Shown: positions 379 through 55,900, numbered from the stretch's first letter. The stretch: 64,000 nt of DNA from Eledone cirrhosa (GCA_964016885.1 OZ024756.1:31682001-31746000); one strand, 5' to 3'. Translations and numbers: made by a program. Notes: a model not told the origin generated them from the letters alone.

Positions 379-611
379 ACACCTGGTTTGAAAACAAGCT
401 CGTTTATATTTGTTTTCATTTTGTTTTGAGTTCGTAAACACGTATATTTTAGGGGATGGGTGAGGGCGTGTATAGGGGGCGGTGTTAGTTGATTAAATAC
501 TTGATAACAGGAAAAGTTAATTTCGTCTGAATTTGAACTCTGAACGTTAATAGGAGACGTAACTAAATACACGAAATGAACTTTTTATGACATTCTATCG
601 ATTCTGCCAAG

Positions 612-983
612 CGATGATGGTGGTGATGATGATGATGATGTGATGGTGACGATGATGATGATGATGGTGATGGTGGTGATGATGATGATGATGATGATGG
701 TGATGGTGATGATGATGATGATGTGACGGTGACGATGATGATGATGATGGTGGTGATGATGGTGATGATGATGATGACGGTGACGATGATGATGATGGTG
801 ATGGTGATGATGATGATGATGATGTGACGGTGACGATGATGATGATGGTGATGGTGGTGATGATGATGATGGTAACGGTGACGATGATGATGATGATGGT
901 GATGGTGATGGTGATGGTGATAGTGATGGTGATGATGATGATGATGATGATGATGGTGACGGTGACGATGATGATGATGATGG

Positions 984-1015
<32 letters not shown>

Positions 1016-1085
1016 GTGATGGTGATGATGATGATGATGATGATGGTGATGATGATGGTGATGGTGATGATGACGATGATGATGA
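612..1085. repeat. (GAT/GGT)n trinucleotide microsatellite
   Basis: Directly visible; explains the poly-His/poly-Met ORFs. Confidence 0.95.
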
Positions 1086-1139
1086 AAAAAACGAAAAAAA
1101 AACAGACTAATAAACAACAAAAAAAGAATATAAAAGATA

Positions 1140-1820
1140 AAAATACAAAAATACAACAAAAACAAAACATAATACAGTGTTAATCCTCAAAAGTCCAGGA
1201 ACGCAGCAACTCCAATGAAAACGATGACAAAAACCACCGACTGCTATAACAACGTCGACGACAACGACAACTACAATGAAAACAACGACAACAACGACAA
1301 TGAAAGCGATGACAACGACAACTACAATGAAAACAACGACAACGACAACGACAATGAAAGCGATGACAACGACAATGAAAACAACGACAACGACAATGAA
1401 AGCGATGACAACAACAACTACAATGAAAACAACGACAACGACAACGACAACGACAATGAAAGCGATGACAACAACAACGACAATGAAAACAACGACAACA
1501 ACAACGACAATGAAAGCGATGACAACGACAACGACAATGAAAACGATGACAAAAACCACCGACTACTATAACAACAACGATGACAACAACGACCAGGAAG
1601 AAAACGAAAATTACCAGGACTGTGATAAAGATGATGATGATGATGATGATGATGAAAAAAAAAAGAAAAAAAAAGAAGAAAAGAACACGTAAAAACAAAA
1701 TAAAAAAGAATATATAAAGAATATATAAAAGAATATATAAAGAATATATAAAAAATACAACAAAAACAGAACATAATACTGTGTTAATCCTCTAAAGTCC
1801 AGGAACGCTACAACTCCAAT
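1140..1820. repeat. Composite (AAC/GAC)-rich minisatellite with a duplicated ~75-bp unique block
   Basis: AAAATACAACAAAAACA.AACATAATAC.GTGTTAATCCTC.AAAGTCCAGGAACGC..CAACTCCAAT occurs at ~1148-1217 and ~1752-1820; internal units AATGAAAACAACGAC.../AATGAAAGCGATGAC... alternate. Confidence 0.85.
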
Positions 1821-1920
1821 TTCATGGATGGTTTCCAATATGTCTGCGATCTACGATGGGTTCCACAAGCAATTCTTCCGATTGTTGCCAAAAATTCAAT
1901 AACTTACACCTTCTAGGACA

Positions 1921-2154
1921 TTGTTGCTATTGTTGTTGTTGTTGTTGTGGTGGTGCTGGTGGTGGTTGCGGTTGTTGCGGTTGTTGTTGCTGTTGTTGAT
2001 GCTGCTGTTGTTGTTGTGGTTGTTGTTGTTGTTGTTGCGGTGGTGGTTGCGGTTGTTGCGGTTGTTGATGCTGTTGTGGTTGTTGTTGCTGTTGTTGTTG
2101 TTGTTATTGTTGATGTTGTTGTTGTTGTTGTGGTAGTGGTGGTGGTGGTGCTGG

Positions 2155-2188
<34 letters not shown>

Positions 2189-2209
2189 GGTAGTGGTGGT
2201 GGTGCTGGT

Positions 2210-2251
<42 letters not shown>

Positions 2252-2475
2252 GATGGTGGCGGTTGTTGTTGTTGCTGTTGTTGTTGTTATTGTTGTTGTT
2301 GTTCCTGTTGTCGTTATTGTCGTATGTGTTGCTGTGGGGGAAGTTGTTGTTATTTGTATTGCTTTTGTTCTGGTTGTTCTTGTTGTTGTTGCTGTCGTCA
2401 TTATTGTCGTCGTCGTTGTTGTAGGTGTTACTATTATTACTGTTGTTGTGGTTGTTGGTGTTGTTGTCTATTGGT
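1921..2475. repeat. (GTT/GGT)n microsatellite
   Basis: Directly visible. Confidence 0.95.
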
Positions 2476-2805
2476 GATTGCCCTCCCCCTCCTCCTCCTC
2501 CTCCCCCTCCCCTCCTCCCCTCCTCCCCTCCCCTACCCCCATTATTTCTCTCTTAGCCTCTCAACTTAAAAGAAGGTTTGATTTACAAAACGCTAACAAC
2601 AAGGAAATTGATTTTGTGCCAAAAAATTTAACGAAACACTTTCTCTAACTGCATTCTTCTAATATATATATATACATACATACATATATATATATATATA
2701 TCATATATATATATAGAAAGATATATATGTATGTACATATGATGTGTGTATATATATATATTATATATATATATATATTATATATATATGTATATTATAT
2801 ATATT

Positions 2806-2862
<57 letters not shown>

Positions 2863-2887
2863 TTATATAAATATATATATGTATATT

Positions 2888-2941
<54 letters not shown>

Positions 2942-3035
2942 TACATATATATATAGATATATATGTATAGATCTATATATATACATACATATATATGTAT
3001 GTATATATATGTATATATATATATACACCTCCACA

Positions 3036-3071
<36 letters not shown>

Positions 3072-3185
3072 GTCAAAGATTATAAGAGTAAAAGTGTATA
3101 AGAGTAAAGGGCATCTTAGAACTTAAATAGAATCTTATTTAATCTTAACGCCGTGTCCTTCCATATCAAACTGTGTGTGTGTGTG

Positions 3186-3216
<31 letters not shown>

Positions 3217-3434
3217 ATATATATATGTGAGTTCGTGTGTGTGTATATATATATATGCAAGCATACACACATACATACAAACACATACATACATACATAT
3301 ATATACATATATACATACACACATATAATGCAAGAGTGTGTGCTATGCTATTCTAATGGATGGTGATTGTGTAGAGTATTTTGTGTGTTAAATTGTTTCA
3401 CGCTGAAAACATAGAGTATTGTGTTATGTTTATA

Positions 3435-3503
<69 letters not shown>

Positions 3504-3506
<3 letters not shown>

Positions 3507-3655
3507 GGCTTGTACAGGACAAAAACTGTTTCATTCGGGAGAAAACATAATGAAACAGCTCTAGTCCTGTAGAAGCCATTTCTATATTAAATATTTATAC
3601 TTTGCTATGTATTGAGTACCTTACTTAACTGTGGTTACCCCCGATTTAATCCGGG

Positions 3656-3660
<5 letters not shown>
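3504..3660 (+). mobile_element. PLE-like terminal fragment, family 1: fold-back hairpin of a hammerhead 3' half plus conserved tail
   Basis: Inverted arms 3504-3535/3549-3580 contain GAAACAG-CTCTAGTC-CTGTA; tail TATGTATTGAGTACCTTAC...GTGGTTACC..CCGA matches the reverse complement of 62657-62770 and 35920-36031; flanked by (TA)n and (CA)n. Confidence 0.7.
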
Positions 3661-3733
<73 letters not shown>

Positions 3734-3735
<2 letters not shown>

Positions 3736-3927
3736 ACGAAGGAAATGTGGTAAGGAACCAGGTGGACCATAACGCACCAAAGTATTCAATACTTAGGGTA
3801 GTAGAGTGGGTAATAGGAACGAGTAGGACCACGACGGCTGAGCTCAAGCCGTTTCGACGGATTCTTAGTCCAGAATTAGCCGTCGAAACGGCTTGAGCTC
3901 AGCTGTCGGGGTCCTACTCGTTCCTAT
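3734..3927 (-). mobile_element. PLE-like terminal fragment, family 2: 48-bp-arm fold-back hairpin plus tail
   Basis: Arms 3813-3860/3880-3927 (2 mismatches) contain GAAACGGC-TTGAGCTCA-GCCGTC (hammerhead GAAA/stem III/GUC); related copies at 25460-25586 and 54263-54299; flanked by (TA)n. Confidence 0.65.
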
Positions 3928-4101
3928 ATATATATATAATATGTTCTTCCTTTGCATATATGAAAGTTCTCCGACCATTTGTTTGCAGTTTGCATCTCTG
4001 TGATTAATCTGTACACGACATGTAAAAGTACCTGAAATCCAACCACAGCCGGCAATTGGCACATATTCTTTATTGATTGACCATACTTAAATATGGAATG
4101 A

Positions 4102-4183
4102 TACGCGATGGGGCCCCCCACAGCCCCGGCGGACAGGATGGAGAAGGCGTTTCCCCGGAGGACGGCAAGGGAGACGCACTGTA
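4102..4183 (-). mobile_element. 3'-terminal fragment of CRE-like (RLE) non-LTR retrotransposon
   Basis: Translates QCVSLAVLRGNAFSILSAG; near-identical to 49774-49852. Confidence 0.6.
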
Positions 4184-4368
4184 GCAATTTTCCTGAATCT
4201 ACTTTCTTTATTCCCTCGTAAGTTCTTTACCTCATACTTTCATAATTGTTCGAAGAAAGACTATGTCAGAAACGTTACCCAAAATTGTTTTCATTGTGCC
4301 AAGCAAGTAACTTAAATTTCATCCTATCCTGCTCAGATGCTCTGTTCTTATTATTTTTTATATATAAG

Positions 4369-4558
4369 GGCGGTGGATTGGCAGTATCGGTAGAGGGTCG
4401 AACGCCATGCTTTGACGCATTGAGTTACGGCCCTTGCCCTTCTGAGTTCAAATCCTGCCGAGGTTGACTTTGCCTTTCATCCTTACGGGGTCGATAAAAT
4501 AAAGTACCAGTAATGCATTGGGTAATTGCTGGCCTTGTGCCTAAAGTAGAAACAATTA

Positions 4559-4562
<4 letters not shown>
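4369..4562 (+). mobile_element. tRNA-derived SINE (~190 bp, window's dominant family)
   Basis: A-box-like TGGCAGTATCGG, B-box GAGTTCAAATCC, central ACTTTGCCTTTCATCCTTACGGGGTCGATAAAATAAAGTACCAG, (ATT)n tail; more than 12 copies in the window. Confidence 0.9.
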
Positions 4563-4599
<37 letters not shown>

Positions 4600-4714
4600 C
4601 TTTTGATAAGGTTAGCGTGTGTTCTGTTACTCTACAGTTTCGCAGTATGTTGACACACAAACACAAACATACACACACATACATATATATATATACATAC
4701 ACATATATATGTAT

Positions 4715-4760
<46 letters not shown>

Positions 4761-4826
4761 GTATACATATATATGTATATATACATATATATGTATACAT
4801 ATACAAATTTGCATATGTACATCATG

Positions 4827-4859
4827 TCTATATATCTATCTACCTATCTATCTACCTAC

Positions 4860-4942
<83 letters not shown>

Positions 4943-4954
4943 CCTATCTATCTA
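4827..4954. repeat. (TATC)n tract, 5' flank of Tx1-like copy
   Basis: Directly visible. Confidence 0.95.
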
Positions 4955-5533
4955 TATGTAGAACGACTATTGTCGCGGGTGGGACCAATCCGGTTGACCA
5001 CCGAGTCCATTGTCATGATCAAACCGCCACCCTCCTTCAAAAACGAAGGAGAGGCGGTTTTCCTTTGTGTGATAGCTATGGCGAAAGAGGTTGTATGGTG
5101 GACAAGGTTGAAAGGGCTGAGGTCAGACACCTTTCTCTCCGGCCAACAACTGATTCTTTTTTTCAAATACCACTTTGGAAGAAGAATCAGGATGGAGAGA
5201 GAGGTGCTGCACCCCAGCAAGTTTTATGAAAGGTGGGTGAAAGTGGCGAGAATGGCCCGAGTGAATGGGCCTTCTCTCTATATCAGCCTGTAGGTTGAGG
5301 AAAAGGAGGAGGAGTGGAAAGGAGTACAAACTCTTCGTACTCCTGGAGATGAGGGTTGCACATTTTTTCGGGGGTATGTGTTACCCATATGAACTGTCTC
5401 CCCCTGTTGGGCAAAATCGACTAATTTTTTAAATTGCCTTTGTGATAACATTTTACACGTTTTTATTGTATGTAAACTTCCCCCTTTGTATTTGTCCCCT
5501 TCTTTTGTGCCCCTGTGGCTAATAAAGAAACAT
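4955..5533 (+). mobile_element. 5'-truncated Tx1-like retrotransposon (subfamily B)
   Basis: Encodes YVERLLSRVGPIRLTTESIVMIKPP...NGPSLYISL* (stop 5291-5293), near-identical to the ORF2 C-terminus at 15176-15514; 3'UTR ends AATAAAGAAACA|TATCTGTCTA. Confidence 0.95.
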
Positions 5534-5635
5534 ATCTGTCTATTTATATAAGACACAATGTGTTGGTAAATTTGCATTTTTTCTTTCAAAAAAAAAAAAA
5601 AGAGAATGTCTGACTTTTCTTTTTGTTCCCCTCAG

Positions 5636-5771
5636 TTGCTGTTCTCTAACACTAAAGTTCACTAATGGAACTAATTAACCATATCTACATCTCCCGAAGA
5701 CACGGCGTCGCTTCTCAGTTTTTCGGATATTATTCCAAAATGCAATTAGCAGCCTGTCCGTCATTGTGTCA
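5636..5771 (+). other. Candidate 136-nt exon (possible first coding exon, ATG at 5665)
   Basis: CTGAC branch motif, TTTTCTTTTTGTTCCCCTCAG acceptor, GTAAGT donor at 5772; frame from ATG 5665 ([35 protein letters not shown]) stays open to the donor. Confidence 0.4.
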
Positions 5772-9592: not shown

Positions 9593-10321
9593 TACATATA
9601 TATATATATATATGTCATTGTATGTGTGTATATTCTATATTATTACATGCATGAATACTTCCCTTCCTTTACAACAACTTACATTATTACAATCGATTCG
9701 TCTTCCCTTTATTAATTCGTGTGTGTCTCTGTTGTTCACATTCTTGTTGCTGCTTCTTCTGTCCTTGCTGTTGTTCTTATAGGCGCCATGATTTTTATTG
9801 GTGATATTGTTGCTACTGTCGTTATTCCGTTATTAATGGTTGTCGTTTTGGTTGATATTTCTTACAAAAACACTCGAATCCTTTGCTGTCAACAATGGCC
9901 GTTATTAAAAATTTTTCAAAAATAAATACACAACTATAAACCGGATAACCCTATCTTTGTCTTTCTTTCTCAATTAATATGCAGCGGCTAATTTACCAGC
10001 TATATATATATATATATAAAAATATATATATAAATATATATATATATGTTCATTCTTCTAACTGCTCCCATACACTCTCTTTTTCTTTCCTTTCATTCTT
10101 TCTTTCTACCCATTTTCTTCCTTCTTTCCTTTCTTTCTTTCTTTCTTTCTCTCCCTCCCCCTCCTTCCTTCCGTCTTTCCTACCTTTCTTTCTTTCGTTC
10201 TTTCTTTCTATATATTTTCTTGCTTTTCTTCTTCTTTCCTTTGTATTACTTTCTTAAACATATTTATTCCTTTCATTTTTTCATGTCTCTCCTTTCTTTG
10301 TTAGTATCTTTCCTTCTATCA

Positions 10322-10429
10322 CTCTATCTATCCATCCATCTATCTATCCATCCATCTATCCATCTATCCATCTATCCATCTATCTATCTATCTATCTATC
10401 CATCCATCTATCCATCTATCCATCTATTC

Positions 10430-10510
<81 letters not shown>
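10322..10510. repeat. (TATC/CATC)n tract, 5' flank of the long Tx1-like element
   Basis: Directly visible. Confidence 0.95.
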
Positions 10511-12052
10511 AAGACCAATAACGGTGACAACAACAACAATGATAACAACAACACCACCAACGACAACAACAACACAAACAAACAAAATTTCTCCTTCGCC
10601 GAGACGACAAGGAAAACCCTCGACTATCTGCCAGTAGATATAACAAAAGCGAAGGAGCTACTGGCGGATGCGAAAAAATATATAGTGTACGGGGAAAATG
10701 GTTCATTCACAATCCATTCCCCCCCGGAACTAAAAAGCCAGAGACTCCTAAACACGGTCATGTTTAGGACAATCTCGAACAAAAGTAAAAAACCAGCTCA
10801 ACCATCACAGAGCGAGATAGAGCTGGTTTTAAAAGACGTCATGAAGGACATCACCTTCATTCAGAAGGATAGACTCTACGGGAGTCTATCCATTCTCATG
10901 AAGGACAGGGACACAGCAGTGAAACTGTCCATCAAACCAATCACATCCACCGCATACACCTTCTACCCTACGTACATGGGTAGAAGAACACAAAAAATAA
11001 AAATCCACACCATCCTGCCGATTATGGACATATGGTGGGTTTTGACAGGTTTTCTGGACCTGGAGGATGACATGCTGGTGTCCATGGGAAAGGCATCGGG
11101 TGACGCGTTCAGTGGAACGAGCCTCGAACTTGTAGTTCAAATGAGGCCCGAAAGGATCGCCCAGATCCCTGAACGCGTCATACTGGATGATCTAACCTTC
11201 ATCAACATTACCGTTGAGGGTAGACGGCCCTCGTGTTACCTCTGCGGAACCAGAGGTCACCTGAGGGCTGTCTGTCCCCAACTTAATAAGAAAACCCCAA
11301 TCCTGCCCACACCACCAACAACTGCACAACCAACACAATCACCACAACAACCACTACAAAAACAACCACCACAGCTCAAACCAAAACAAAACAATGTCCA
11401 ACCCATCCCCTCCACTCAAAAAACAAAAACAATTTCCAAAACACCCGTACCGCAAACACAACCCGAAAATATACCCCTCCCCTCCAACGCGGAAGATGAC
11501 CCTAGTTCGTCGTCAGACGAGGAGGAGCACTTCCACACAATCAAAAGAAAAAAAAGAAAACACACCTCAGACACACAAATGAAAAAAACCCCTCCCCAAA
11601 ACATAACACTGACACCAACACAAAAGAGCTCACAACAGCAAACAAAAAACACCACACAAAAACAAAAACATGCATACACATACATAAATACAAGAAACAA
11701 AAAACTGTTAAACATTGTGTACAACAACAATCTAATAAAAACACAAGGGCCTAACTTCACCCAGGCAGGGGATTTCCCCCACCTCAAAATGATTAAGGCC
11801 CCACAGGACACCTATAAAACTTTAAAAAACAATTTTAAAGAGGACGTGGGTCCCCCCTGCGTCGGGCCCATTAACCGAGTCCTCCTAAAAAACTATCCCA
11901 CCCCCTCCCCAAACACCCTCACAACTCCAAGCTCCCCAACCACACAACACACTGATGCCCCCACACTTCCACAAACCACCACCCCACCCAACAACCCATC
12001 CCCCACCCTAATGGAAATTGTGCAGCCCGATACCCGGGACGCAGAGAGGTAA
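10511..12052 (+). CDS. Retrotransposon ORF1 (gag-like nucleic-acid-binding protein), probably lacking its native start
   Basis: Open from the element boundary to TAA 12050-12052; [14 protein letters not shown] = CX2CX4HX4C knuckle (11234-11275); N-terminal SFAE motif; P/T/Q-rich tail with KRKKRK. First in-element ATG at 10760. Confidence 0.85.
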
Positions 12053-12076
12053 GTGCCTTTTCTCTTCACCACCAAC

Positions 12077-15000
12077 ATGGCTATGCTAAGAGTAGGCTGT
12101 TTAAATGCGCGTGGCCTGGGCTCAACTTGGAAGCAAGCAATGCTTCTAAATGACCTCAGGTCACAACGTATAGATGTGATGGTTATTTGCGAGGCCCGGA
12201 TCAGCAACGTGCGACAGCTGGCCCCCACCTTTGATGACTTTGAGATGCACGCATCTCTCTGTCAGCCTGGAGGTGGGGGTGGAGTTGTCGTTCTGCTGCA
12301 AAAACATCTGGGTCTCGCAACACAGATGGTACATTTGGACCCGGAGGGTCGACTAGTGGTTCTGGACCTTGGCAGTGGTAAAGGCGGAGCGTTTAGGTTG
12401 GTAGCCGCCTACGGCCCTTTCGGGTCAATGCGGCCGGACTTCTTCCATCGTCTGGAGACTTTTCTAGGGACGTCCCGCTCCTTGCTATTAGTGGGGGACT
12501 GGAATGGTATCCTAGATGCACGCTGGGACTACGTAGGGGCCTGCCCCGATAGAGAGGGGTGTAATAGCCTCAAAGGGTTAATCGGTCGATTTGACCTGGC
12601 CGATAGATATCGACTAGATTTTCCGACTGCGCCAACCTGGACTTGGGCAAATCGTAGCGGATCATCTAGGTCGTACCTAGATAGGTTCTTAGTTAGAATT
12701 AAGGATAAGGACTTTTTAAGTTGTCCAAAAATGCGCATTGTTGGCTATTCAGACCACAAATTAGTGACCTGCATGGTCAACCTTGACAGAACTCATAGAC
12801 AGGGCCCCGGTTACTGGAAGCTCAACTTGTCCTTGCCGGCAAGTAGAGCCTACAGGAATCGGATTAGTACGTTAGTTAAGGAACGGTTGACTGGAGCGAT
12901 CGTCAACAGCAGGTGGTGGGTATCTCTAAAGAGAGAGATTAGAGTAGTCTCGATAGAATTTAGTAAGGTTCTAGCTGCGGATAGGAATAGGAAGGAAAGG
13001 GAGCTAATAGATAGAGTAGAAGAGGCAATTAGAAGCGGCGACGTGGCCAGAGTGCTAGCGTCGAGAACGGCTTTGAGCCAGTTTTTCGACGCGAAGCACG
13101 AAGGCTGCGTTGTCCGAAGTAAAATACGTGCTCTAGGGAACGAGGGGACCAAAGCTGTTAGCTGGGCCCGCGTGACAGAGGCCAACAGTGGAACTAAATC
13201 CACCATCCGGTCTTTGCGAGACCTGGATGGACGGGCGATTCTTGAGCCTAAGCAGATGTGTGAGGCCTTTCAAAGGCACTTTGCCCGACTGTTCGGGAGG
13301 GGCGGGGAGCCGGTTGGGAACGTGGACTTCGGTCCATACCTCGACGGCCTGCCGCGCCTCTCGGACAGGGAGGCGAAGTCCTGCGAGGAGCCGATTTCGG
13401 CCGCTGAGATAGAGGACGTGCTGAGCCAATGCGGCAAACGCAAATCCCCGGGTCTCGATGGTCTTCCTTACGAATTATATCTAGCTATGCCGGACTTGTT
13501 CCCCGATCTCCTCGAGGCGGTCTACTGCAACTGGCAACAGAACGGGAGAATTCCCTGTACTGTGACCAAGGGCGTAGTCACGCTAGTGAGGAAGGACGAG
13601 AACAAGGGGGACGAAATAAGTAACTTCAGGCCCATAACACTGCTAAATACAGAGTTACAGATTTTGGCCAAGGTGCTAGCAAAGAGGTTGGCGCTTGTCG
13701 TGGGCAACCTGGTGGGAGATGCGCAGACATGCGCTATCCCGTCCAGGTCCATCCATGACAACCTCCACCTCATGCGATACATCATAGAGAGGGTTGGGAA
13801 CGAACCCGGCTTTGGTGGGGCTCTGATCAACTTGGATCAATCTAAGGCGTTCGATAGGGTCGACCATGGTTACCTGGATGCGGTGCTAGCGGCGGCAGGC
13901 TTCGGACCCGTTTTCAGGGGCTGGATCACTGCTATGCACAGCAGCCGCATCTGCTCTAGGGTCAAGGTGAACGGCTACCTCTCGGAGCCGTTCAAAATCG
14001 CGCGGTCCATCCGACAAGGGTGCCCTCTCTCCTCCCTTCTGTATGTATTGACTCTCGAGCCACTACTGCGGAAGTTGGAGTTGTTGCAGGGCATCCCTTT
14101 GGAACCGGGATTGCGGAAAGCGGTGTCGGCCTACGCCGATGACGTGACAGTAATGGTGTCGACGGCCTCCGAAATCGAGGCGGTCGGCACCTTACTGGAG
14201 GAGTACGAAAAGTTCACAGGGGCTAAGCTGAACCGGGACAAGTCGATCGGTTTGCAACTCGGCACGTGGAGGGGCAGACCGATGCCCTCCGATAGCGTCG
14301 TCGGACGCTGGACGGAGGGCCCGGTGAAGTTGCTCGGGGTCTGGTTCGGACCGGACCTCCAGGTGGAGAAAAACTGGGCGGAGGTTACGAACAGAGTGTT
14401 TGCACTGACCCAGAAGTGGGCCAGTTGCAAACTATCCCTGAAAGGTCGGGCGGAGGTGGCGAACACCTACATAGCGTCCGTCATCTACTACCGCCTGACC
14501 GTAGTGCCCTGCCCAAGGGAAACCCTCACCAAGATGGAGCGCGCGCTCTTCCAATTCCTTTGGAAGAGGCGGGCTCCTATGGTGAGGAGATCCATCTGCT
14601 GTCAACACCCTTCGAAAGGAGGGCTGGGGATGCCGTGGCTAATGATGCGTAAACACGCATTAAGGCTACGGCACCTCTACGTATTCCTCACCGGACAACC
14701 GGTGTGGGCCTCGTTTGTGAGACGAACCTTTCCCAGACTCGTCTCACTCACCGAGCTGCAATCCTGGGTCAAGCAAAGACCGAGAAAACTGGGCGCCTGG
14801 CACACTGAGTGTGCCCAGGCGCTCACCGCCCTCTGGCAGGCGGATCCGGTTATCAGTGGAGACTCCACCGCAACATTCTATAGAGGGCTGGTACGCAGCA
14901 GGTGCGACGACGCCCTCGGAGAAGCCCTAGACATGGAGGAGGACGAACTGGCCAGCCTTTTCGGTAGGACATTCAGCCCGGGACCTATGGACAACTTCCA

Positions 15001-15514
15001 GAAGTCCCTGGCCTGGCAGTGCTACCGAGGGGCTTTACCCGTTCGAGAAAGGCTCTACAGACACGGGCGCCCGGGTAGGGACCCCGCCAAAAAGATCTGT
15101 CCCAGATGCGTGTGCGACGAGGAAACCGTTGCACACGCATTAGTACACTGCTCGGGCGTAGCCGATCTGTGGGGCTATGTCGAACAACTGCTGTCAAGGG
15201 TGGGACCGATCCGGTTGACCACCGAGTCTATTGTAATGATCAAGCCGCCTCCCCCCTTCAAAGATGAAGCAGAGGCGGTGTTTCTGTGCGTAATAGCCAT
15301 GGCGAAAGAGGTTGTATGGTGGACGCGTCTGAAAGGACTGAGGTCGGGCACCTTTCTCTCTGGCCAACAACTGGTCCGTTTCTTCCGATATCATTTCGGA
15401 AGAAGGATCAGGATGGAGAGAGAGGTGCTGCACCCCAGCCGTTTCTATGAAAGATGGGTGAAAGTGGCGAGAATGGCCCGTGTGAATGGGCCTTCACTCT
15501 ACATCAGACTATAG
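12077..15514 (+). CDS. Retrotransposon ORF2: APE endonuclease + reverse transcriptase + C-terminal zinc motif (1145 aa)
   Basis: EN motifs LNARGL, ICEA, AAYGP, GDWN, YLDR, SDH; RT motifs KSPGLDG, FRPITLLN, LDQSKAFDRV, RQGCPLS, YADD (14132-14143), KLLGV; CPRC-X8-HALVHC; Tx1-typical GYWKLN and GGLGMP; ATG in ACCAACATGG context; no stops or frameshifts. Confidence 0.95.
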   Translation: MAMLRVGCLNARGLGSTWKQAMLLNDLRSQRIDVMVICEARISNVRQLAPTFDDFEMHASLCQPGGGGGVVVLLQKHLGLATQMVHLDPEGRLVVLDLGSGKGGAFRLVAAYGPFGSMRPDFFHRLETFLGTSRSLLLVGDWNGILDARWDYVGACPDREGCNSLKGLIGRFDLADRYRLDFPTAPTWTWANRSGSSRSYLDRFLVRIKDKDFLSCPKMRIVGYSDHKLVTCMVNLDRTHRQGPGYWKLNLSLPASRAYRNRISTLVKERLTGAIVNSRWWVSLKREIRVVSIEFSKVLAADRNRKERELIDRVEEAIRSGDVARVLASRTALSQFFDAKHEGCVVRSKIRALGNEGTKAVSWARVTEANSGTKSTIRSLRDLDGRAILEPKQMCEAFQRHFARLFGRGGEPVGNVDFGPYLDGLPRLSDREAKSCEEPISAAEIEDVLSQCGKRKSPGLDGLPYELYLAMPDLFPDLLEAVYCNWQQNGRIPCTVTKGVVTLVRKDENKGDEISNFRPITLLNTELQILAKVLAKRLALVVGNLVGDAQTCAIPSRSIHDNLHLMRYIIERVGNEPGFGGALINLDQSKAFDRVDHGYLDAVLAAAGFGPVFRGWITAMHSSRICSRVKVNGYLSEPFKIARSIRQGCPLSSLLYVLTLEPLLRKLELLQGIPLEPGLRKAVSAYADDVTVMVSTASEIEAVGTLLEEYEKFTGAKLNRDKSIGLQLGTWRGRPMPSDSVVGRWTEGPVKLLGVWFGPDLQVEKNWAEVTNRVFALTQKWASCKLSLKGRAEVANTYIASVIYYRLTVVPCPRETLTKMERALFQFLWKRRAPMVRRSICCQHPSKGGLGMPWLMMRKHALRLRHLYVFLTGQPVWASFVRRTFPRLVSLTELQSWVKQRPRKLGAWHTECAQALTALWQADPVISGDSTATFYRGLVRSRCDDALGEALDMEEDELASLFGRTFSPGPMDNFQKSLAWQCYRGALPVRERLYRHGRPGRDPAKKICPRCVCDEETVAHALVHCSGVADLWGYVEQLLSRVGPIRLTTESIVMIKPPPPFKDEAEAVFLCVIAMAKEVVWWTRLKGLRSGTFLSGQQLVRFFRYHFGRRIRMEREVLHPSRFYERWVKVARMARVNGPSLYIRL

Positions 15515-15536
15515 GTGAGGAAGATGAAAGACCAAG

Positions 15537-15603
15537 GGAGCACCCCTTCTCTGTGCTCCTGAGGAGAAGGGTTGCACACTTTTTTCGGGGGTGTGTGCGA
15601 CCC
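15537..15603 (+). promoter_or_regulatory. Structured 3'UTR: two stem-loops (one with UUCG) and a possible pseudoknot
   Basis: GGAGCAC/GTGCTCC and GGGTTGCACAC/GTGTGCGACCC, with compensatory C-G to T-A changes in subfamily B copies. Confidence 0.65.
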
Positions 15604-16072
15604 CCCAAGGCGCCTCCTCTCTATTGAGGATTTTGTTAAAAATTTTATTTTTTGTTATATCTTATTTTATTTTTATATTTTGTTATTGCCTCCTCCTTAT
15701 TGAGGACGCCTTTTTGTGTAAACTCCCCCCTTTGTACTTGTCCCACTTTTGATGCCCTAGTGGCAAATAAAAGAAATATATCTATCTATCTATCTATGTA
15801 TAATTTCATCTCTCTCTCTCTCTCTCTCTCTCTCGCTTTCTCTGTCTGTCTCTCTCTTTCTTTCTATCTATCTTTCCTTCTTGTTTTCCTTCCGCCTTTG
15901 TTGGTTTCCTGTCTTCCTTCATTTTTCTCTGATGTTTCAAAACTCCAAGACATTTGCACTGGTTAACCCAGAAGCAGACTTTACCGTCTTTGTTTTGTTT
16001 ACAGGTCTCAACTAGTCGTAAGGTTTTTATATCATATTATATTTAAATTATGGTTTATACATGCATGCATAC

Positions 16073-18309: not shown

Positions 18310-18830
18310 CAAGACAACAACAATAACAACAACAATAACTGCGCCAGCAGTGGCAGCAGCAACTGCAGCAATAGCAGCAACAGCGTTAACGACAATAACA
18401 ACACCACTGCCACCGCAACAACAACACCACAACACCACAATAACAACAACCATCACCACCACCAGTACCATAACAACAACCACCAACACCACCAACACCA
18501 CCATCACCACCACAATAACAACCATCACCATCATCACCACTAACACCACCGCCACCAACACCTCCACCAAGACCAACACCACCACCATCACCACAATAAC
18601 AACAACAATCACCACCACCACCACCACCACCACCACAATAACAACAGCCACCACCAACACCTCCACCAACACCAACACAATCACCACCACCATCAGCACC
18701 ACCATCACTAACACCAACACCACCACCAACACCACAATAACAATAACAGCCACCGCCACCACCAATACCAACATCACTACTATCCTCCAATAACAATAAC
18801 AACAACAACAGCCACAACAATAATAAACAC
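18310..18830. repeat. (AAC/ACC)n microsatellite
   Basis: Directly visible. Confidence 0.9.
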
Positions 18831-19175
18831 AAAAAGTACACAAAGAAATAAAAAAAAATAATAAATAAAAATAAAAAAACAAACAAATAAATTATTGAAA
18901 TATTTCTTATCGATTTTTGATGAGAAAGTCAAAGGAATGTCACGTGACGTAGTTTTGTTCTTAAATAACATTTACATATTTTAAAAATATTCTTTATTAA
19001 GAAAATACAATGTCATGTGACAACACACTTTGTGTTAACTTTGACAGGAAAATGGTAATTTCATACCTTTCTTTACCCATATACCGAGTGGACAAGATGC
19101 CCAGTGGTCATGCAACAGCTATCTACAGCTACCCATGTATCTAGCTTTGCACAATAAATACATCTATCTATCTAT

Positions 19176-19560
19176 CTGATTCTTTTTTTCAAATACCACT
19201 TTGGAAGAAGAATCAGAATGGAGAGAGAGGTGCTGTACCCCAGCAAGTTTTATGGAAGGTGGGTGAAAGTGGCGAGAATGGCCCGAGTGAATGGGCCTTC
19301 TCTCTATATCAGCCTGTAGGTTGAGGAAAAGGAGGAGGAGAGGAAAGGAGTACAAACTCTTCGTACTCCTGGAAATGAGGGTTGCACATTTTTTCGGGGG
19401 TATGTGTTACCCATATGAACTGTCTCCCCTATTGGGGAAAATCGACTAATTTTTTAAATTACATTTGTGATAACATTTTACACGTTTTTATTGTATGTAA
19501 ACTTCCCCCTTTGTATTTGTCCCCTTCTTTTGTGCCCCTGTGGCTAATAAAGAAACATAT
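19176..19560 (+). mobile_element. 5'-truncated Tx1-like copy (subfamily B) in (TATC)n
   Basis: Homologous to 5150-5533; TATC repeats at both junctions. Confidence 0.95.
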
Positions 19561-19626
19561 CTATCTATCCATCTATCTATCTATCTATCTCTCTATCTAT
19601 CTATCTATCTATTTATTTATCTATCT

Positions 19627-19667
19627 TTGTCCTCTTCTTTTGTGCCCCTCTGGCTAATAAAGAAACA

Positions 19668-19718
<51 letters not shown>

Positions 19719-19764
19719 TTTTGTTCTCTTCTTTTGTGCCCCTCTGGCTAATAAAGAAACATAT
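19627..19764 (+). mobile_element. Two ~45-bp 3'-terminal Tx1-like stubs separated by (TATC)n
   Basis: TTGT.CTCTTCTTTTGTGCCCCTCTGGCTAATAAAGAAACATATC at ~19627-19670 and ~19720-19764. Confidence 0.9.
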
Positions 19765-20066
19765 CTATCTATCTTCTCTGCACCATCCAACCTACCCACC
19801 TACCTCACTATCTACCCACTAGATATTCATAGATACGCTCGTGAGTATTGTACAAGTATGATCTCCTGCCCACTTGAATTCTAGCCTTACTTTGTAACTG
19901 GAAACCAATTTCCTTGAAAACCCCTCGAAATCTCACAATTTCACTTTTAGTAACTAGAAGAAAATCAAAATATATACGTATCACTACCGCCAGTTGACAT
20001 AATATAGCGAACATGTTTTCATAGATAATCGAAATACAATGGCTAAGGTAAATAAGCCTTGTTTCT

Positions 20067-30698: not shown

Positions 30699-30984
30699 CC
30701 CGTCGTCGTAGTTGTCGCTGTCATCGTCGCCTTCTTCTCAGACTTGAAAGAAAAAAAAAAAAGAAAGTATTGGGTGGGTAATATATGATCAACCAAATTC
30801 CTTCAAAGCGATGCTACAGCCTGGGCGCAGTATAACGACTGTAGCCATTTAAGGAATAACAGAATAAAAGAATAAACATATTTGTATATATTCCTTTTGC
30901 AAAAGATTTAATTGAAGATATAGAGGAGATGGTGATTGAAGTTGAATTTAAGCGAAATCTAATGACATCAGTATCACCGAAATT

Positions 30985-31581
30985 GGCGGTGGATTGGCAG
31001 CATCGGTAGGGGGTCGGACGCCATGCTTTGACGCATTGAGTTACGGCCCTTGCCATTCTGAGTTCAAATCCCGCCGAGGTTAACTTTGTCTTTCATCCTT
31101 ACGCGGTCGATAAAATAAAGTACCAGTAATACACTGGGGGTAATTGCTTGCCTTGTGCCAAAAGTAGAAACATTGTTATCATTGGGGGATGGAATGGCAG
31201 TATCGGTAGAGGGTCGGACGCCATGCTTTGACGCATTGAGTTACGGCCCTTGCCATTCTGAGTTCAAATCCCGCCGAGGTTAACTTTGTCTTTCATCCTT
31301 ACGCGGTCGATAAAATAAAGTACCAGTAATACACTGGGGGTAATTGCTTGCCTTGTGCCAAAAGTAGAAACATTGTTATCATTGGGGGATGGAATGGCAG
31401 TATCGGTAGAGGGTCGGACGCCATGATGTGACGCATTGAGTTACGGCCCTTGCCATTCTGAGTTCAAATCCCGCCGAGGTTAACTTTGCATTTCATCCTT
31501 ACGCGGTCGATAAAATAAAGTACCAGTAATACACTGGGGGTAATTGCTGGCCTTGTGCCAAAAGTAGAAACAATTATTATC
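30985..31581 (+). mobile_element. Head-to-tail SINE trimer (200-bp period) inside one target-site duplication
   Basis: Three copies share private variants (ACGCGGTCG, ACACTGGGGG); TATCACCGAAA at 30972-30982 and 31578-31588. Confidence 0.9.
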
Positions 31582-31898
31582 ACCGAAACGTTTGGAATTA
31601 TTTTAATATTCTGTAAGTAGTAAAAACCAAAGTTATCTCGGCATTTATTAATCCTGTGGAATTAGAAGAATGTGAAGCCGATATCATTATTAAGGCGAAA
31701 GCATTAAAATGGGAACTAAGGAGTAGAAATCTGAAGTTAGATAAAACTTACTGGTATTGGAACTGACAATAAAAGATAAAAGTGCCATGGAAAGGATTAA
31801 TAATACAGTATATGTATATGTATATGTATATGTATACGTATATGTGTACGTATCTGTATATATATATATATATGTATACGTATATGTGTACGTATCTG

Positions 31899-34600: not shown

Positions 34601-34724
34601 TCTCTCAAGCTAGTGTTTATACACACAGACACACACTCCCACACATACATGTATATTTGTATATAAGTATATAGGCTATGCTTATATGTATATATATCTA
34701 TATCTATCTATCTATCTATCTATC

Positions 34725-35110
34725 CAACTGATTCTTTTTTTCAAATACCACTTTGGAAGAAGAATCAGGATGGAGAGAGAGGTGCTGTACCCCAGCAAGT
34801 TTTATGGAAGGTGGGTGAAAGTGGCGAGAATGGCCCGAGTGAATGGGCCTTCTCTCTATATCAGCCTGTAGGTTGAGGAAAGAGAGGAGGAGAGGAAAGG
34901 AGTACAAACTCTTCGTACTCCTGGAGATGAGGGTTGCACATTTTTCCGGGGTATGTGTTACCCATATGAACTGTCTCCCCCTATTGGGGAAAATCGACTA
35001 ATTTTTTAAATTGCATTTGTGATAACATATTACACGTTCTTATTGTATGTAAACTTCCCCCTTTGTATTTGTCCCCTTCTTTTGTGCCCCTGTGGCTAAT
35101 AAAGAAACAT
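34725..35110 (+). mobile_element. 5'-truncated Tx1-like copy (subfamily B) in (TATC)n
   Basis: Homologous to 19176-19560; TATC at 34696-34724 and 35110-35220. Confidence 0.95.
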
Positions 35111-35126
35111 ATCTATCTATCTATCC

Positions 35127-35166
<40 letters not shown>

Positions 35167-35169
35167 ATA

Positions 35170-35220
<51 letters not shown>

Positions 35221-35244
35221 ATATATATATGTATATCTGTGTGC

Positions 35245-41606: not shown

Positions 41607-41806
41607 NNNNNNNNNNNNNNNNNNNNNNNNNNNNNNNNNNNNNNNNNNNNNNNNNNNNNNNNNNNNNNNNNNNNNNNNNNNNNNNNNNNNNNNNNNNNNN
41701 NNNNNNNNNNNNNNNNNNNNNNNNNNNNNNNNNNNNNNNNNNNNNNNNNNNNNNNNNNNNNNNNNNNNNNNNNNNNNNNNNNNNNNNNNNNNNNNNNNNN
41801 NNNNNN
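41607..41806. other. Assembly gap (200 N)
   Basis: Run of N. Confidence 1.
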
Positions 41807-47463: not shown

Positions 47464-47698
47464 TACACACACACACTCATACATGCATACATGCACACAT
47501 ACACATATGGAGAGAGAGAGAAATAGAGAGAGAGAGATGGAAGATGAACATGTTTAAGTGCTTATGTATATAAAAATGTATTAATGTTTTTGTGTATGTA
47601 GTTACACATACATAACCTTACAGAATAACACCCACACTCCATCACACACACACACAGACACAAACACTCATATATATGTATATATCTATCTATCTCTT

Positions 47699-54811: not shown

Positions 54812-54846
<35 letters not shown>

Positions 54847-54979
54847 AGACACACACTTACCATCACACCAGACATGTATATAAATATATATAGATAGATA
54901 GATAGACAGATAGATATCCGGATATCAAATGTATCGGTAAAAATACAACAACCAATAAAGACACCGAGTTACACCATTT
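54749..54979. repeat. ~90-bp-arm inverted repeat with internal (TATC)n/(GATA)n
   Basis: AAATGGTGTAACTCGGTGT...GATATCCGGATATC is mirrored at 54889-54979. Confidence 0.9.
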
Positions 54980-55900
54980 ATATGTATATATACACACACA
55001 CACACACATATATATAAATATATATTATGCATCTATCTATCTATCTATCTATCTATATATCTGTCTTTCTATTTATTTATTTATCTATCTATAATATATA
55101 TATATCCGTCTGCATGTCTATGTATGTATGTATGTATGCATGTATGTATGTATGTATGTATGTATGTACGTATGCATACATCTATTTTCCTCTCGCTCTC
55201 TATCGCTCAACATACATGTATACATGTACATACATATATTTATTTGTATGTATATCCACACCTATGAACGTACATACATATGGGCATCAGAAAATGTGCG
55301 TATTTTTCTATGACTTAATGTTTTGGTAGTTTCATATTATCGAAATATACGTTAGAAAAAATTCTTTGAAAGATTTTTGCCGACTAAAGCACTCACTAAT
55401 TCCTCTGGAGTTTTGTCGATTTGCAAGATTTGCTGTGATGTTTCCAGCACCCCTATAAAATTTCTCTTTTCTTTATCGTTAATGCAACGAATTATACGGC
55501 CATACATTTATTTATGCATGCATATATACATAGATTTATACTAACACATACTCAAACAGAGGGAAACATTAGCACATATATATATACGTATACATTCACA
55601 AGTATCTATGTATTACTCCTGTATTTGTTTGTTTTTTGTTTTGTTATTTCGAACTAATATATATACATATATATATATTTATACTTGTGAATGTATGCGT
55701 ATATATGTGTGTGAGTATGTTTCCGTCTGTGTGAATATGTGTAAGTATAAATGTATGCATATATATGCATGCAAAAATGAGTATATATATATATATATAT
55801 AGGAGGAGAATTTATGCTTATAAATATGTAACAGATAAACCACATATGTACACATTGCAATACACAGGATGGACACATGCAAACAAACGCACCAGTACCA

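Follow-up and report, generated by a model that had tools for sequence, protein, structure and literature searches.

The locus considered here raises the question of whether a retrotransposon bordered by short tandem repeats was inserted into these repeats or wrote them itself. It lies in a stretch of 64,000 nucleotides (nt) of Eledone cirrhosa (GCA_964016885.1, OZ024756.1:31682001-31746000), hereafter the window, where a Tx1-like long interspersed nuclear element (LINE) is bordered by (TATC)n. A reading made from the sequence alone had described it as an apparently intact Tx1-clade retrotransposon specific for (GATA)n. From the present analysis, it is probable that this LINE sits in pre-existing TAT(C/A)T, mostly (TATC)n, in a fixed phase and orientation, and that its own endonuclease nicks the GATA strand, with the freed end serving as a primer. 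Its copies have a fixed junction, a target that was there beforehand, duplications of 12-22 bp, no poly(A), two bases (NN) inherited with the element, and a fourth target base that comes from the site. The element is real, young, and strongly target-biased, and its target and branch appear to be new within a known kind of element.

The copy in the window

The copy and its flanks consist of the following parts, including two open reading frames (ORFs) and the 3′ untranslated region (UTR):

10315-10510, plus strand: (TATC)n tract of the 5′ flank, its upstream half imperfect
10511-15778, plus strand: 5′-truncated copy of subfamily A, corresponding to positions 463-5722 of a natural full-length copy and 99.5-99.7% identical to it
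10511-12052, plus strand: remnant of ORF1, an open frame without a start, with a CX2CX4HX4C knuckle
12077-15514, plus strand: ORF2 of 1145 amino acids, with an apurinic/apyrimidinic endonuclease (APE) and a reverse transcriptase (RT)
15515-15778, plus strand: 3′ UTR ending in AATAAAAGAAA and two element-inherited bases (TA), without poly(A)
15779-15797, plus strand: 3′ flank of (TATC)4 TAT, in the phase common to all sampled copies

The long element and its ORF2 without stops or frameshifts were recovered as first described (10511-15778, 1145 open codons). The description as apparently intact did not hold, since the copy is 5′-truncated: it begins at position 463 of the 5722-nt natural copy, other copies extend further upstream, and the missing part of approximately 460 nt comprises the 5′ UTR and approximately 80 codons of ORF1, which has 592 amino acids in the full-length copy at locus L037. 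The window copy is 99.7% identical to L037, in which both ORFs are open, and is a 5′-truncated product whose mobilization would depend on a full-length copy. An AATAAA motif lies in its 3′ UTR at 15766-15771. The last 18 nt of the 5′ tract (10493-10510) match the 3′ flank and are likely the target duplication, the length of which is ambiguous by multiples of 4. The N-terminal part of ORF1 in full-length copies (L037 and L082) contains a long (AAC)n-rich stretch of variable length, encoding poly-Asn, and the truncation point of the window copy falls inside this stretch.

A single 3′ junction across the genome

Copies were counted by pattern searches of the animal's own genome with exact 3′ probes and a lineage motif. 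Two diverged subfamilies share the target, as had been claimed, namely, A, to which the long element belongs, and B, to which the short copies of the window belong, approximately 83% identical over ORF2. The exact 3′ probes matched 1,969 times for A and 5,982 times for B, and the A 5′ end matched 386 times, while the lineage-wide 3′ motif gave 25,783 matches against 13 for its reversed control. The A sample consists of the first 77 of the 1,969 matches, all on contig 1; each of these copies ends in AAGAAA-NN and runs into TAT(C/A)T (63 into TATCT and 14 into TATAT), and none has poly(A) at the 3′ end. Among the first 30 B copies, 25 continue into TATCT, 4 into TCTCT, and 1 into neither. Genome-wide, the 25,783 3′ ends divide into 18,336 with TATCT (71%), 1,578 with TATAT (6%), and 5,869 others; against the 18,336 ends of the form NN-TATCT, just 5 matches were found in the GATA orientation. 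In the methods of PMC4494074, elements are called target-specific when a single repeat type accounts for over 20% of the flanks. This share was 52/77 for the 5′ flanks of A, and for the 3′ junctions it was 63/77 for A, 25/30 for B, and 71% genome-wide. Insertion into (TC)n or (TTC)n, as in Kibi or Koshi, was seen in 0/77 A copies; 4/30 B copies run into TCTCT, and nearly all others into TATCT.

The preference was gauged against 20 evenly chosen 8-kb stretches, in which TATCTATC occurs 15 times and TATATATA 4,966 times, the insertions being 53 and 8. TATC is preferred over TA approximately 2,200-fold with these words, 1,250-fold when the 262,150 (TATC)4 matches of the genome are used, and 180-fold with 5-mers, all rough values, since the background comes from a small sample and duplications made by the element inflate the TATC count. 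The label of GATA specificity is too strict, the core being TAT(C/A)T with TATC preferred over TA approximately 180- to 2,000-fold. The related claim that other repeats hold no copy is true within the window; genome-wide, 1,578 of the 25,783 ends run into TATAT, and 8/77 A copies lie in pure (TA)n. Target position 9 is T in 77/77 A copies, including 12/12 non-repeat sites, and in 28/30 B copies.

Near-random insertion, with copies merely surviving or accumulating in TATC-rich regions, is hardly credible on these data. The phase is single (77/77), the orientations stand at 18,336 to 5, and the copies, with a median identity of 99%, are too young for selection to have shaped the pattern. Nothing specific speaks for it; in family S alone, a sister family described below, copies may have spread passively along with a subtelomeric satellite, as 10/10 long copies are full length and share one 5′ junction. 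For the TATC families, phase and orientation already refute random insertion.

The 77 A copies have a median identity of 99.0% to a natural reference copy, 17 of them extend to the 5′ end, and both ORFs are kept in 6, which suggests a young and recently active family. The potential activity claimed earlier may thus be ascribed to the family and not to the 5′-truncated copy of the window. TATC tracts also precede a number of other distinct 5′ ends (L191, L348, L359, L364, and the 3′ flanks of several A and B copies), and more subfamilies appear to exist than those characterized.

Target or tail

The sequence-only reading had held that the TATC tract probably pre-dates the insertion, and the 5′ flanks, the duplications at imperfect sites, and the orientation bear this out. 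In the A sample from contig 1, TATCTATC falls within the 30 nt next to the element on the 5′ side in 52/77 copies (random-window background, 0.09%), and TA repeats alone do so in 8/77; TATCTATC also stands before 26/30 full-length 5′ ends. At imperfectly periodic sites, 17 informative duplications of 12-22 bp start at the junction, two of them being near-identical neighbours; an apparent 45-bp duplication was set aside as an artefact of periodicity. Copies inside unrelated tandem repeats or at degenerate sites show no TATC beyond the duplicated target. Because duplications at imperfect sites come without added TATC, the evidence supports TATC having been present before insertion as a target and not a tail.

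The inheritance of single bases was followed in the 60 rows that had 850 or more aligned positions; of the 77 copies, 14 were too short. The NN before the junction tracks the element lineage (36.9/60 versus 16.6 when shuffled, with a maximum of 26.3), while C or A at target position 4 does not (38.5 versus 39.6 shuffled), suggesting that the RNA templates through NN and that the site supplies the rest.

Copies often lie beside their own kind: 34/77 A copies adjoin another lineage copy, 20 upstream and 25 downstream. Among the first 26 TATC tract clusters of contig 1, counted by hand and with 4 taken from loci fetched in other samples, 20 adjoin a lineage member, 1 more probably does so, and 5 are empty; among the first 30 of 2,751 long one-phase tracts of contig 1, 21 adjoin a lineage member and 1 more probably. 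In these contig-1 samples, approximately 70-80% of TATC tracts adjoin a member of the lineage, with copies nested in head-to-tail order. This abundance would be expected if TATC were a tail written or seeded by the element, the 5′ tracts arising by tandem insertion or later expansion, and so would the 3′ end of another copy just upstream in 20/77 copies and, by a rough count, the 14/77 copies with at least six 3′ units or with 3′ TATC and little or no 5′ TATC. Such an origin is nevertheless very improbable, since insertions in unrelated repeats or degenerate sites gain nothing beyond their duplication, in a nested three-copy series a two-unit site is duplicated but not lengthened, no element precedes most 5′ tracts, and empty TATC tracts exist (5/26 and 8-9/30 in the two samples).

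At G000:C1:42.070-42.082 Mb (L081-L083), two near-identical full-length B copies stand head to tail with the same spacer, and this pair may be a tandem duplication instead of two insertions. At L200 (G000:C1:5361500-5362600), a TATC tract is followed by an inverted 3′-end piece, similar to the 5′ inversions of L1 type.

Endonuclease or RNA as the source of specificity

For insertion into a pre-existing tract, a scheme may be proposed from the present data and general knowledge about target-primed reverse transcription (TPRT), two typical traits of which are seen here, namely, duplications of 12-22 bp (17 informative) and 5′ truncation (17/77 copies reach the 5′ end). The endonuclease would nick the GATA strand, probably at 5′-AGATA/GATA-3′, and the freed 3′ end would prime reverse transcription on the end of the RNA. 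Since no poly(A) is copied even though AATAAA is there, priming likely proceeds not on a poly(A) tail but via a few matching bases, UAU(C), located at the end of the element or immediately beyond it. The target duplication would then arise from a second nick, 12-22 nt downstream. Each insertion would leave TATC at both ends, so that later copies could enter beside earlier ones and build head-to-tail arrays, and sister families would likely have moved to (ATT)n and to satellites through changes in the endonuclease and the RNA end.

In this scheme, the endonuclease is inferred to set the specificity. Alternatively, a loose endonuclease might cut at any TA-rich step and the preference might come mainly from the RNA: read-through into the UAUC of the donor would select primers that pair with it, the target would be inherited with the flank, and switches would need no new enzyme. 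The lack of copied poly(A) in 77/77 copies agrees with this, as do family ends that run directly into their own targets (TA into TATCT, TC into ATTAT, and CC into ACTCT), the extra TATA at some junctions, hairpin loops that are almost constant between families, and the more frequent TATAT in the CT subfamily (7/21 versus 5/52, p = 0.03). It is judged unlikely, given that position 4 is not inherited along the lineage (a weak test, since TATC surrounds most donors), that the T at position 9 is kept while positions 6-8 vary (12/12 non-repeat sites), a gapped pattern that suits read-out by a protein better, and that a T-x-T core, at positions 3 and 5, is common to families with differing ends.

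Several points weigh against a specific endonuclease acting on pre-existing TATC. A few junctions (L228, L237, and L239) have extra TATA before the duplication, which suggests that the RNA end, slippage, or read-through contributes sequence. The beta-hairpin loop, which affects the specificity of L1 (PMC1950540), is nearly identical among the TATC, satellite, and ATT families, so the determinant of specificity is not obvious. On the 5′ side, 17/77 A copies have neither TATC nor TA repeats; 2 of these had too little flank, several show duplications at degenerate sites, and some are unexplained. The T at position 9 falls to 18/30 in a mixed, older TATAT set (15/21 without family H). All flank samples come from contig 1, save 6 of 30 family-S loci from contig 2, and the nicking specificity is a prediction.

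The encoded proteins and their placement

The element has the layout of the L1 group, with two ORFs and with an APE endonuclease followed by an RT in ORF2, matched by the Pfam domains Exo_endo_phos and RVT_1; no Pfam match to an RNase H domain was found in ORF2. The catalytic residues expected of the endonuclease are intact (N10, E39, Y112, D141, N143, D202, D226, and H227), the RT has YADD at 686, and a C-terminal CX2CX8HX4C at 1008-1025 aligns with the Tx1 motif, zf-RVT scoring 24.6 bits on ORF2, under its cut-off of 27.5. A structure model of ORF2 residues 1-250 (predicted local distance difference test, 92.9) has the L1 endonuclease as its best match (template modelling score, TM, 0.81), and the best solved-structure matches of ORF2 are L1 ORF2p and L1 EN. 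The CX2CX4HX4C of ORF1 is present in the sequence, with Pfam zf-CCHC at merely E 0.043, below the cut-off, and the Atlas neighbours of ORF1 at 0.89-0.92 are CCHC, RRM, and ZCCHC3-like clusters. An ORF1 with a CCHC knuckle and RNA-binding domains is a feature of the Tx1 clade.

In phmmer, ORF2 scored 314 bits with Xenopus Tx1 versus 167 with human L1 and 102-143 with plant L1, and its nearest named homologue is from Argonauta hians, with 67% identity over the RT, which points to an octopod as the likely host. A quick tree of 47 rows and a careful one of 22 rows, both without vertebrate L1, Kibi, Koshi, Keno, and Dewa, group the lineage with Tx1 as opposed to plant L1 (100/100), in an open fork; together with unnamed proteins, it makes up a separate clade that has full support and lies outside the vertebrate Tx1 subclade. 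The lineage behaves like a target-specific Tx1 element. The earlier assignment to the Tx1 clade agrees with the domain layout and the score (314 versus 167 bits) and is qualified by the position outside the vertebrate Tx1 subclade, strict membership being likely.

Sister families with other targets

Of the 5,869 other 3′ ends, 20 were fetched. Family T, with 1,388 probe matches, ends in TC and runs into ATTATT; 30/30 sampled copies continue into (ATT)-type repeats, one of them turning to (TTC)n, and 14/27 visible 5′ junctions have ATT repeats by rule (background, 1.0%). It is older, with an unbroken ORF2 in 0/10 long copies owing to frameshifts or stops (L261-L290 and L321-L330). Family S, whose 329 matches concentrate towards the ends of the largest contigs, lies at ACTCTATAT in a satellite of approximately 71 bp in 30/30 copies. 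All 10 of its long copies are full length with an identical 5′ junction, one truncated copy has a 9-bp duplication, and the family possibly spread together with its satellite. For family H, 9/9 fetched copies, which were picked on that flank, sit at TATATC(T/A) within a CT-rich satellite, with near-perfect duplications of 15-18 bp starting with TATATC (L219, L229, L231, L233-L236, L238, L240, and L371-L379).

Copies of family S are approximately 5.6 kb long, some with an intact ORF2 (G000:C1:4.229-4.259 Mb, L249, L250, and L291-L320), and six stand in tandem with a spacing of approximately 5.9 kb. One satellite unit is found at every full-length 5′ junction of this family and may be part of the RNA.

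The endonucleases are 79% identical between A and B, 77% between A and S, 82% between B and S, and 61% between A and T. Approximately nine positions, among them G116W, and one insertion distinguish family S from each of the four TATC families compared, and its hairpin loop barely differs from theirs. In the careful 22-row tree, family T branches as sister to a clade (100/100) that comprises B, S, H, and the other TATC families. The monophyly of the TATC families was neither shown nor rejected (approximately unbiased test, p-AU 0.35). A broader picture can be drawn tentatively, with a little less than even confidence: an undescribed invertebrate branch of Tx1-like elements would have radiated within one genome onto (TATC)n, (ATT)n, and two satellites, a subtelomeric one of 71 bp and a CT-rich one, with endonucleases that are 61-89% identical, so that few residues may switch the target, and its active TATC branch would fill most long GATA tracts and largely shape the GATA microsatellites.

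Short relatives and other features of the window

The window also contains the following relatives of the element:

4827-5532, plus strand: TATC tract (4827-4954) and a truncated subfamily-B copy (4955-5532; also given as 4955-5530)
19165-19773, plus strand: three tandem 3′ fragments of subfamily B (19176-19555, 19626-19665, and 19720-19759) with TATC tracts between them
34701-35228, plus strand: truncated subfamily-B copy (34725-35107) between two TATC tracts

All five shorter relatives of the first description were located, in the same orientation and 3′ phase; they lie on the plus strand, end in AATAAAGAAA-CA before TATCT, are preceded by TATC on the 5′ side, lack poly(A), and match a natural full-length B copy at 92.5-97% identity. 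The long 5′ tracts were likewise found, at 4827-4955 and 10315-10510. TATC on both sides of every copy was confirmed for the 5′ sides, and on the 3′ side, the copy at 4955 has a single TATCT and then GTCT. Element-free TATC tracts occur at 47683 and 54812-55053. A short stretch at 19115-19165 ends in AATAAATACA right before a TATC tract and resembles the 5′ flank of L206; it may be another element, which either terminates in TATC or makes use of it. At 30982-31582, a 200-bp unit, which resembles a tRNA-derived short interspersed nuclear element, is present in three tandem copies, and similar sequence follows several 3′ ends of family T (L263, L266, L268, L273, and L281). A Dewa-like target in a tRNA array was rejected, tRNA genes being absent from the window. 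A run of 200 N occupies 41607-41806.

Relation to known elements and significance

Tx1 elements specific for microsatellites are already on record, as are changes of target between Tx1 families. Kibi, Koshi, and the crocodilian Tx1 families are likewise Tx1-type APE elements in microsatellites, with (TC)n, (TTC)n, and (TTCC)n or (TTTC)n as targets in the parts of the sources used here (PMC4494074; PMC3812793); the present lineage differs in its (TATC)n target, its invertebrate host, and an RT outside the vertebrate Tx1 subclade, Kibi and Koshi being compared by description. Xenopus Tx1L (YTX2_XENLA, P0287) has the same ORF2 layout with 30% identity over 833 amino acids and an endonuclease that nicks its target specifically in vitro (PMC1950540), and it differs in targeting the transposon Tx1D, in a hairpin loop two residues longer, and in its separate, fully supported clade. 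Waldo, Mino, and Dong are non-LTR elements in ACAY, AC, and TAA microsatellites, none being given with a GATA target in the portion of PMC3812793 consulted. Dong has its TAA/ATT target in common with family T. These three are taken to belong to other clades (R1 and R4). Human L1 is similar in its endonuclease fold (TM 0.81) and its frequent 5′ truncation, and its target duplications have a range similar to 12-22 bp; it differs in its poly(A) tail, in a weak preference for TTTT/AA, and in a score half that of Tx1. In Octopus vulgaris, 13 recently active L1-Tx1 families with 421 insertions have been listed (PMC13282606, Table 1), in a paper whose main text does not contain the word 'target'; compared by description, these families may include relatives of the lineage.

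A Tx1 or L1 element targeting GATA or TATC was not found in the literature searched, although figure 3 and the supplements of PMC4494074, Repbase, and Dfam, which lay beyond the scope of the search, may hold this target. The words 'GATA' and 'TATC' are absent from the main text of PMC4494074, its figure 3 and supplements lying outside this check. The targets seen in the consulted parts are TC, TTC, TTCC/TTTC, U2, and transposons in PMC4494074 and ACAY, AC, TC, TTC, and TAA in PMC3812793, while those of PMC4640811 and PMC8869645 added TG and general context.

The recognition of microsatellites by APE-type retrotransposons has been called not well understood (PMC3812793). One genome with close relatives, intact enzymes, and different, sharply phased targets would offer a natural series on target change. 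With 82% endonuclease identity between B and S and approximately nine positions that set S apart, the determinants would be testable by domain swaps, and read-out by the enzyme could be told apart from RNA-primer pairing. A GATA-directed endonuclease-RT could also serve as a tool for multi-copy, site-directed insertion. GATA repeats are common in other animal genomes. For marker work in animals such as this one, GATA microsatellites would often have repetitive flanks.

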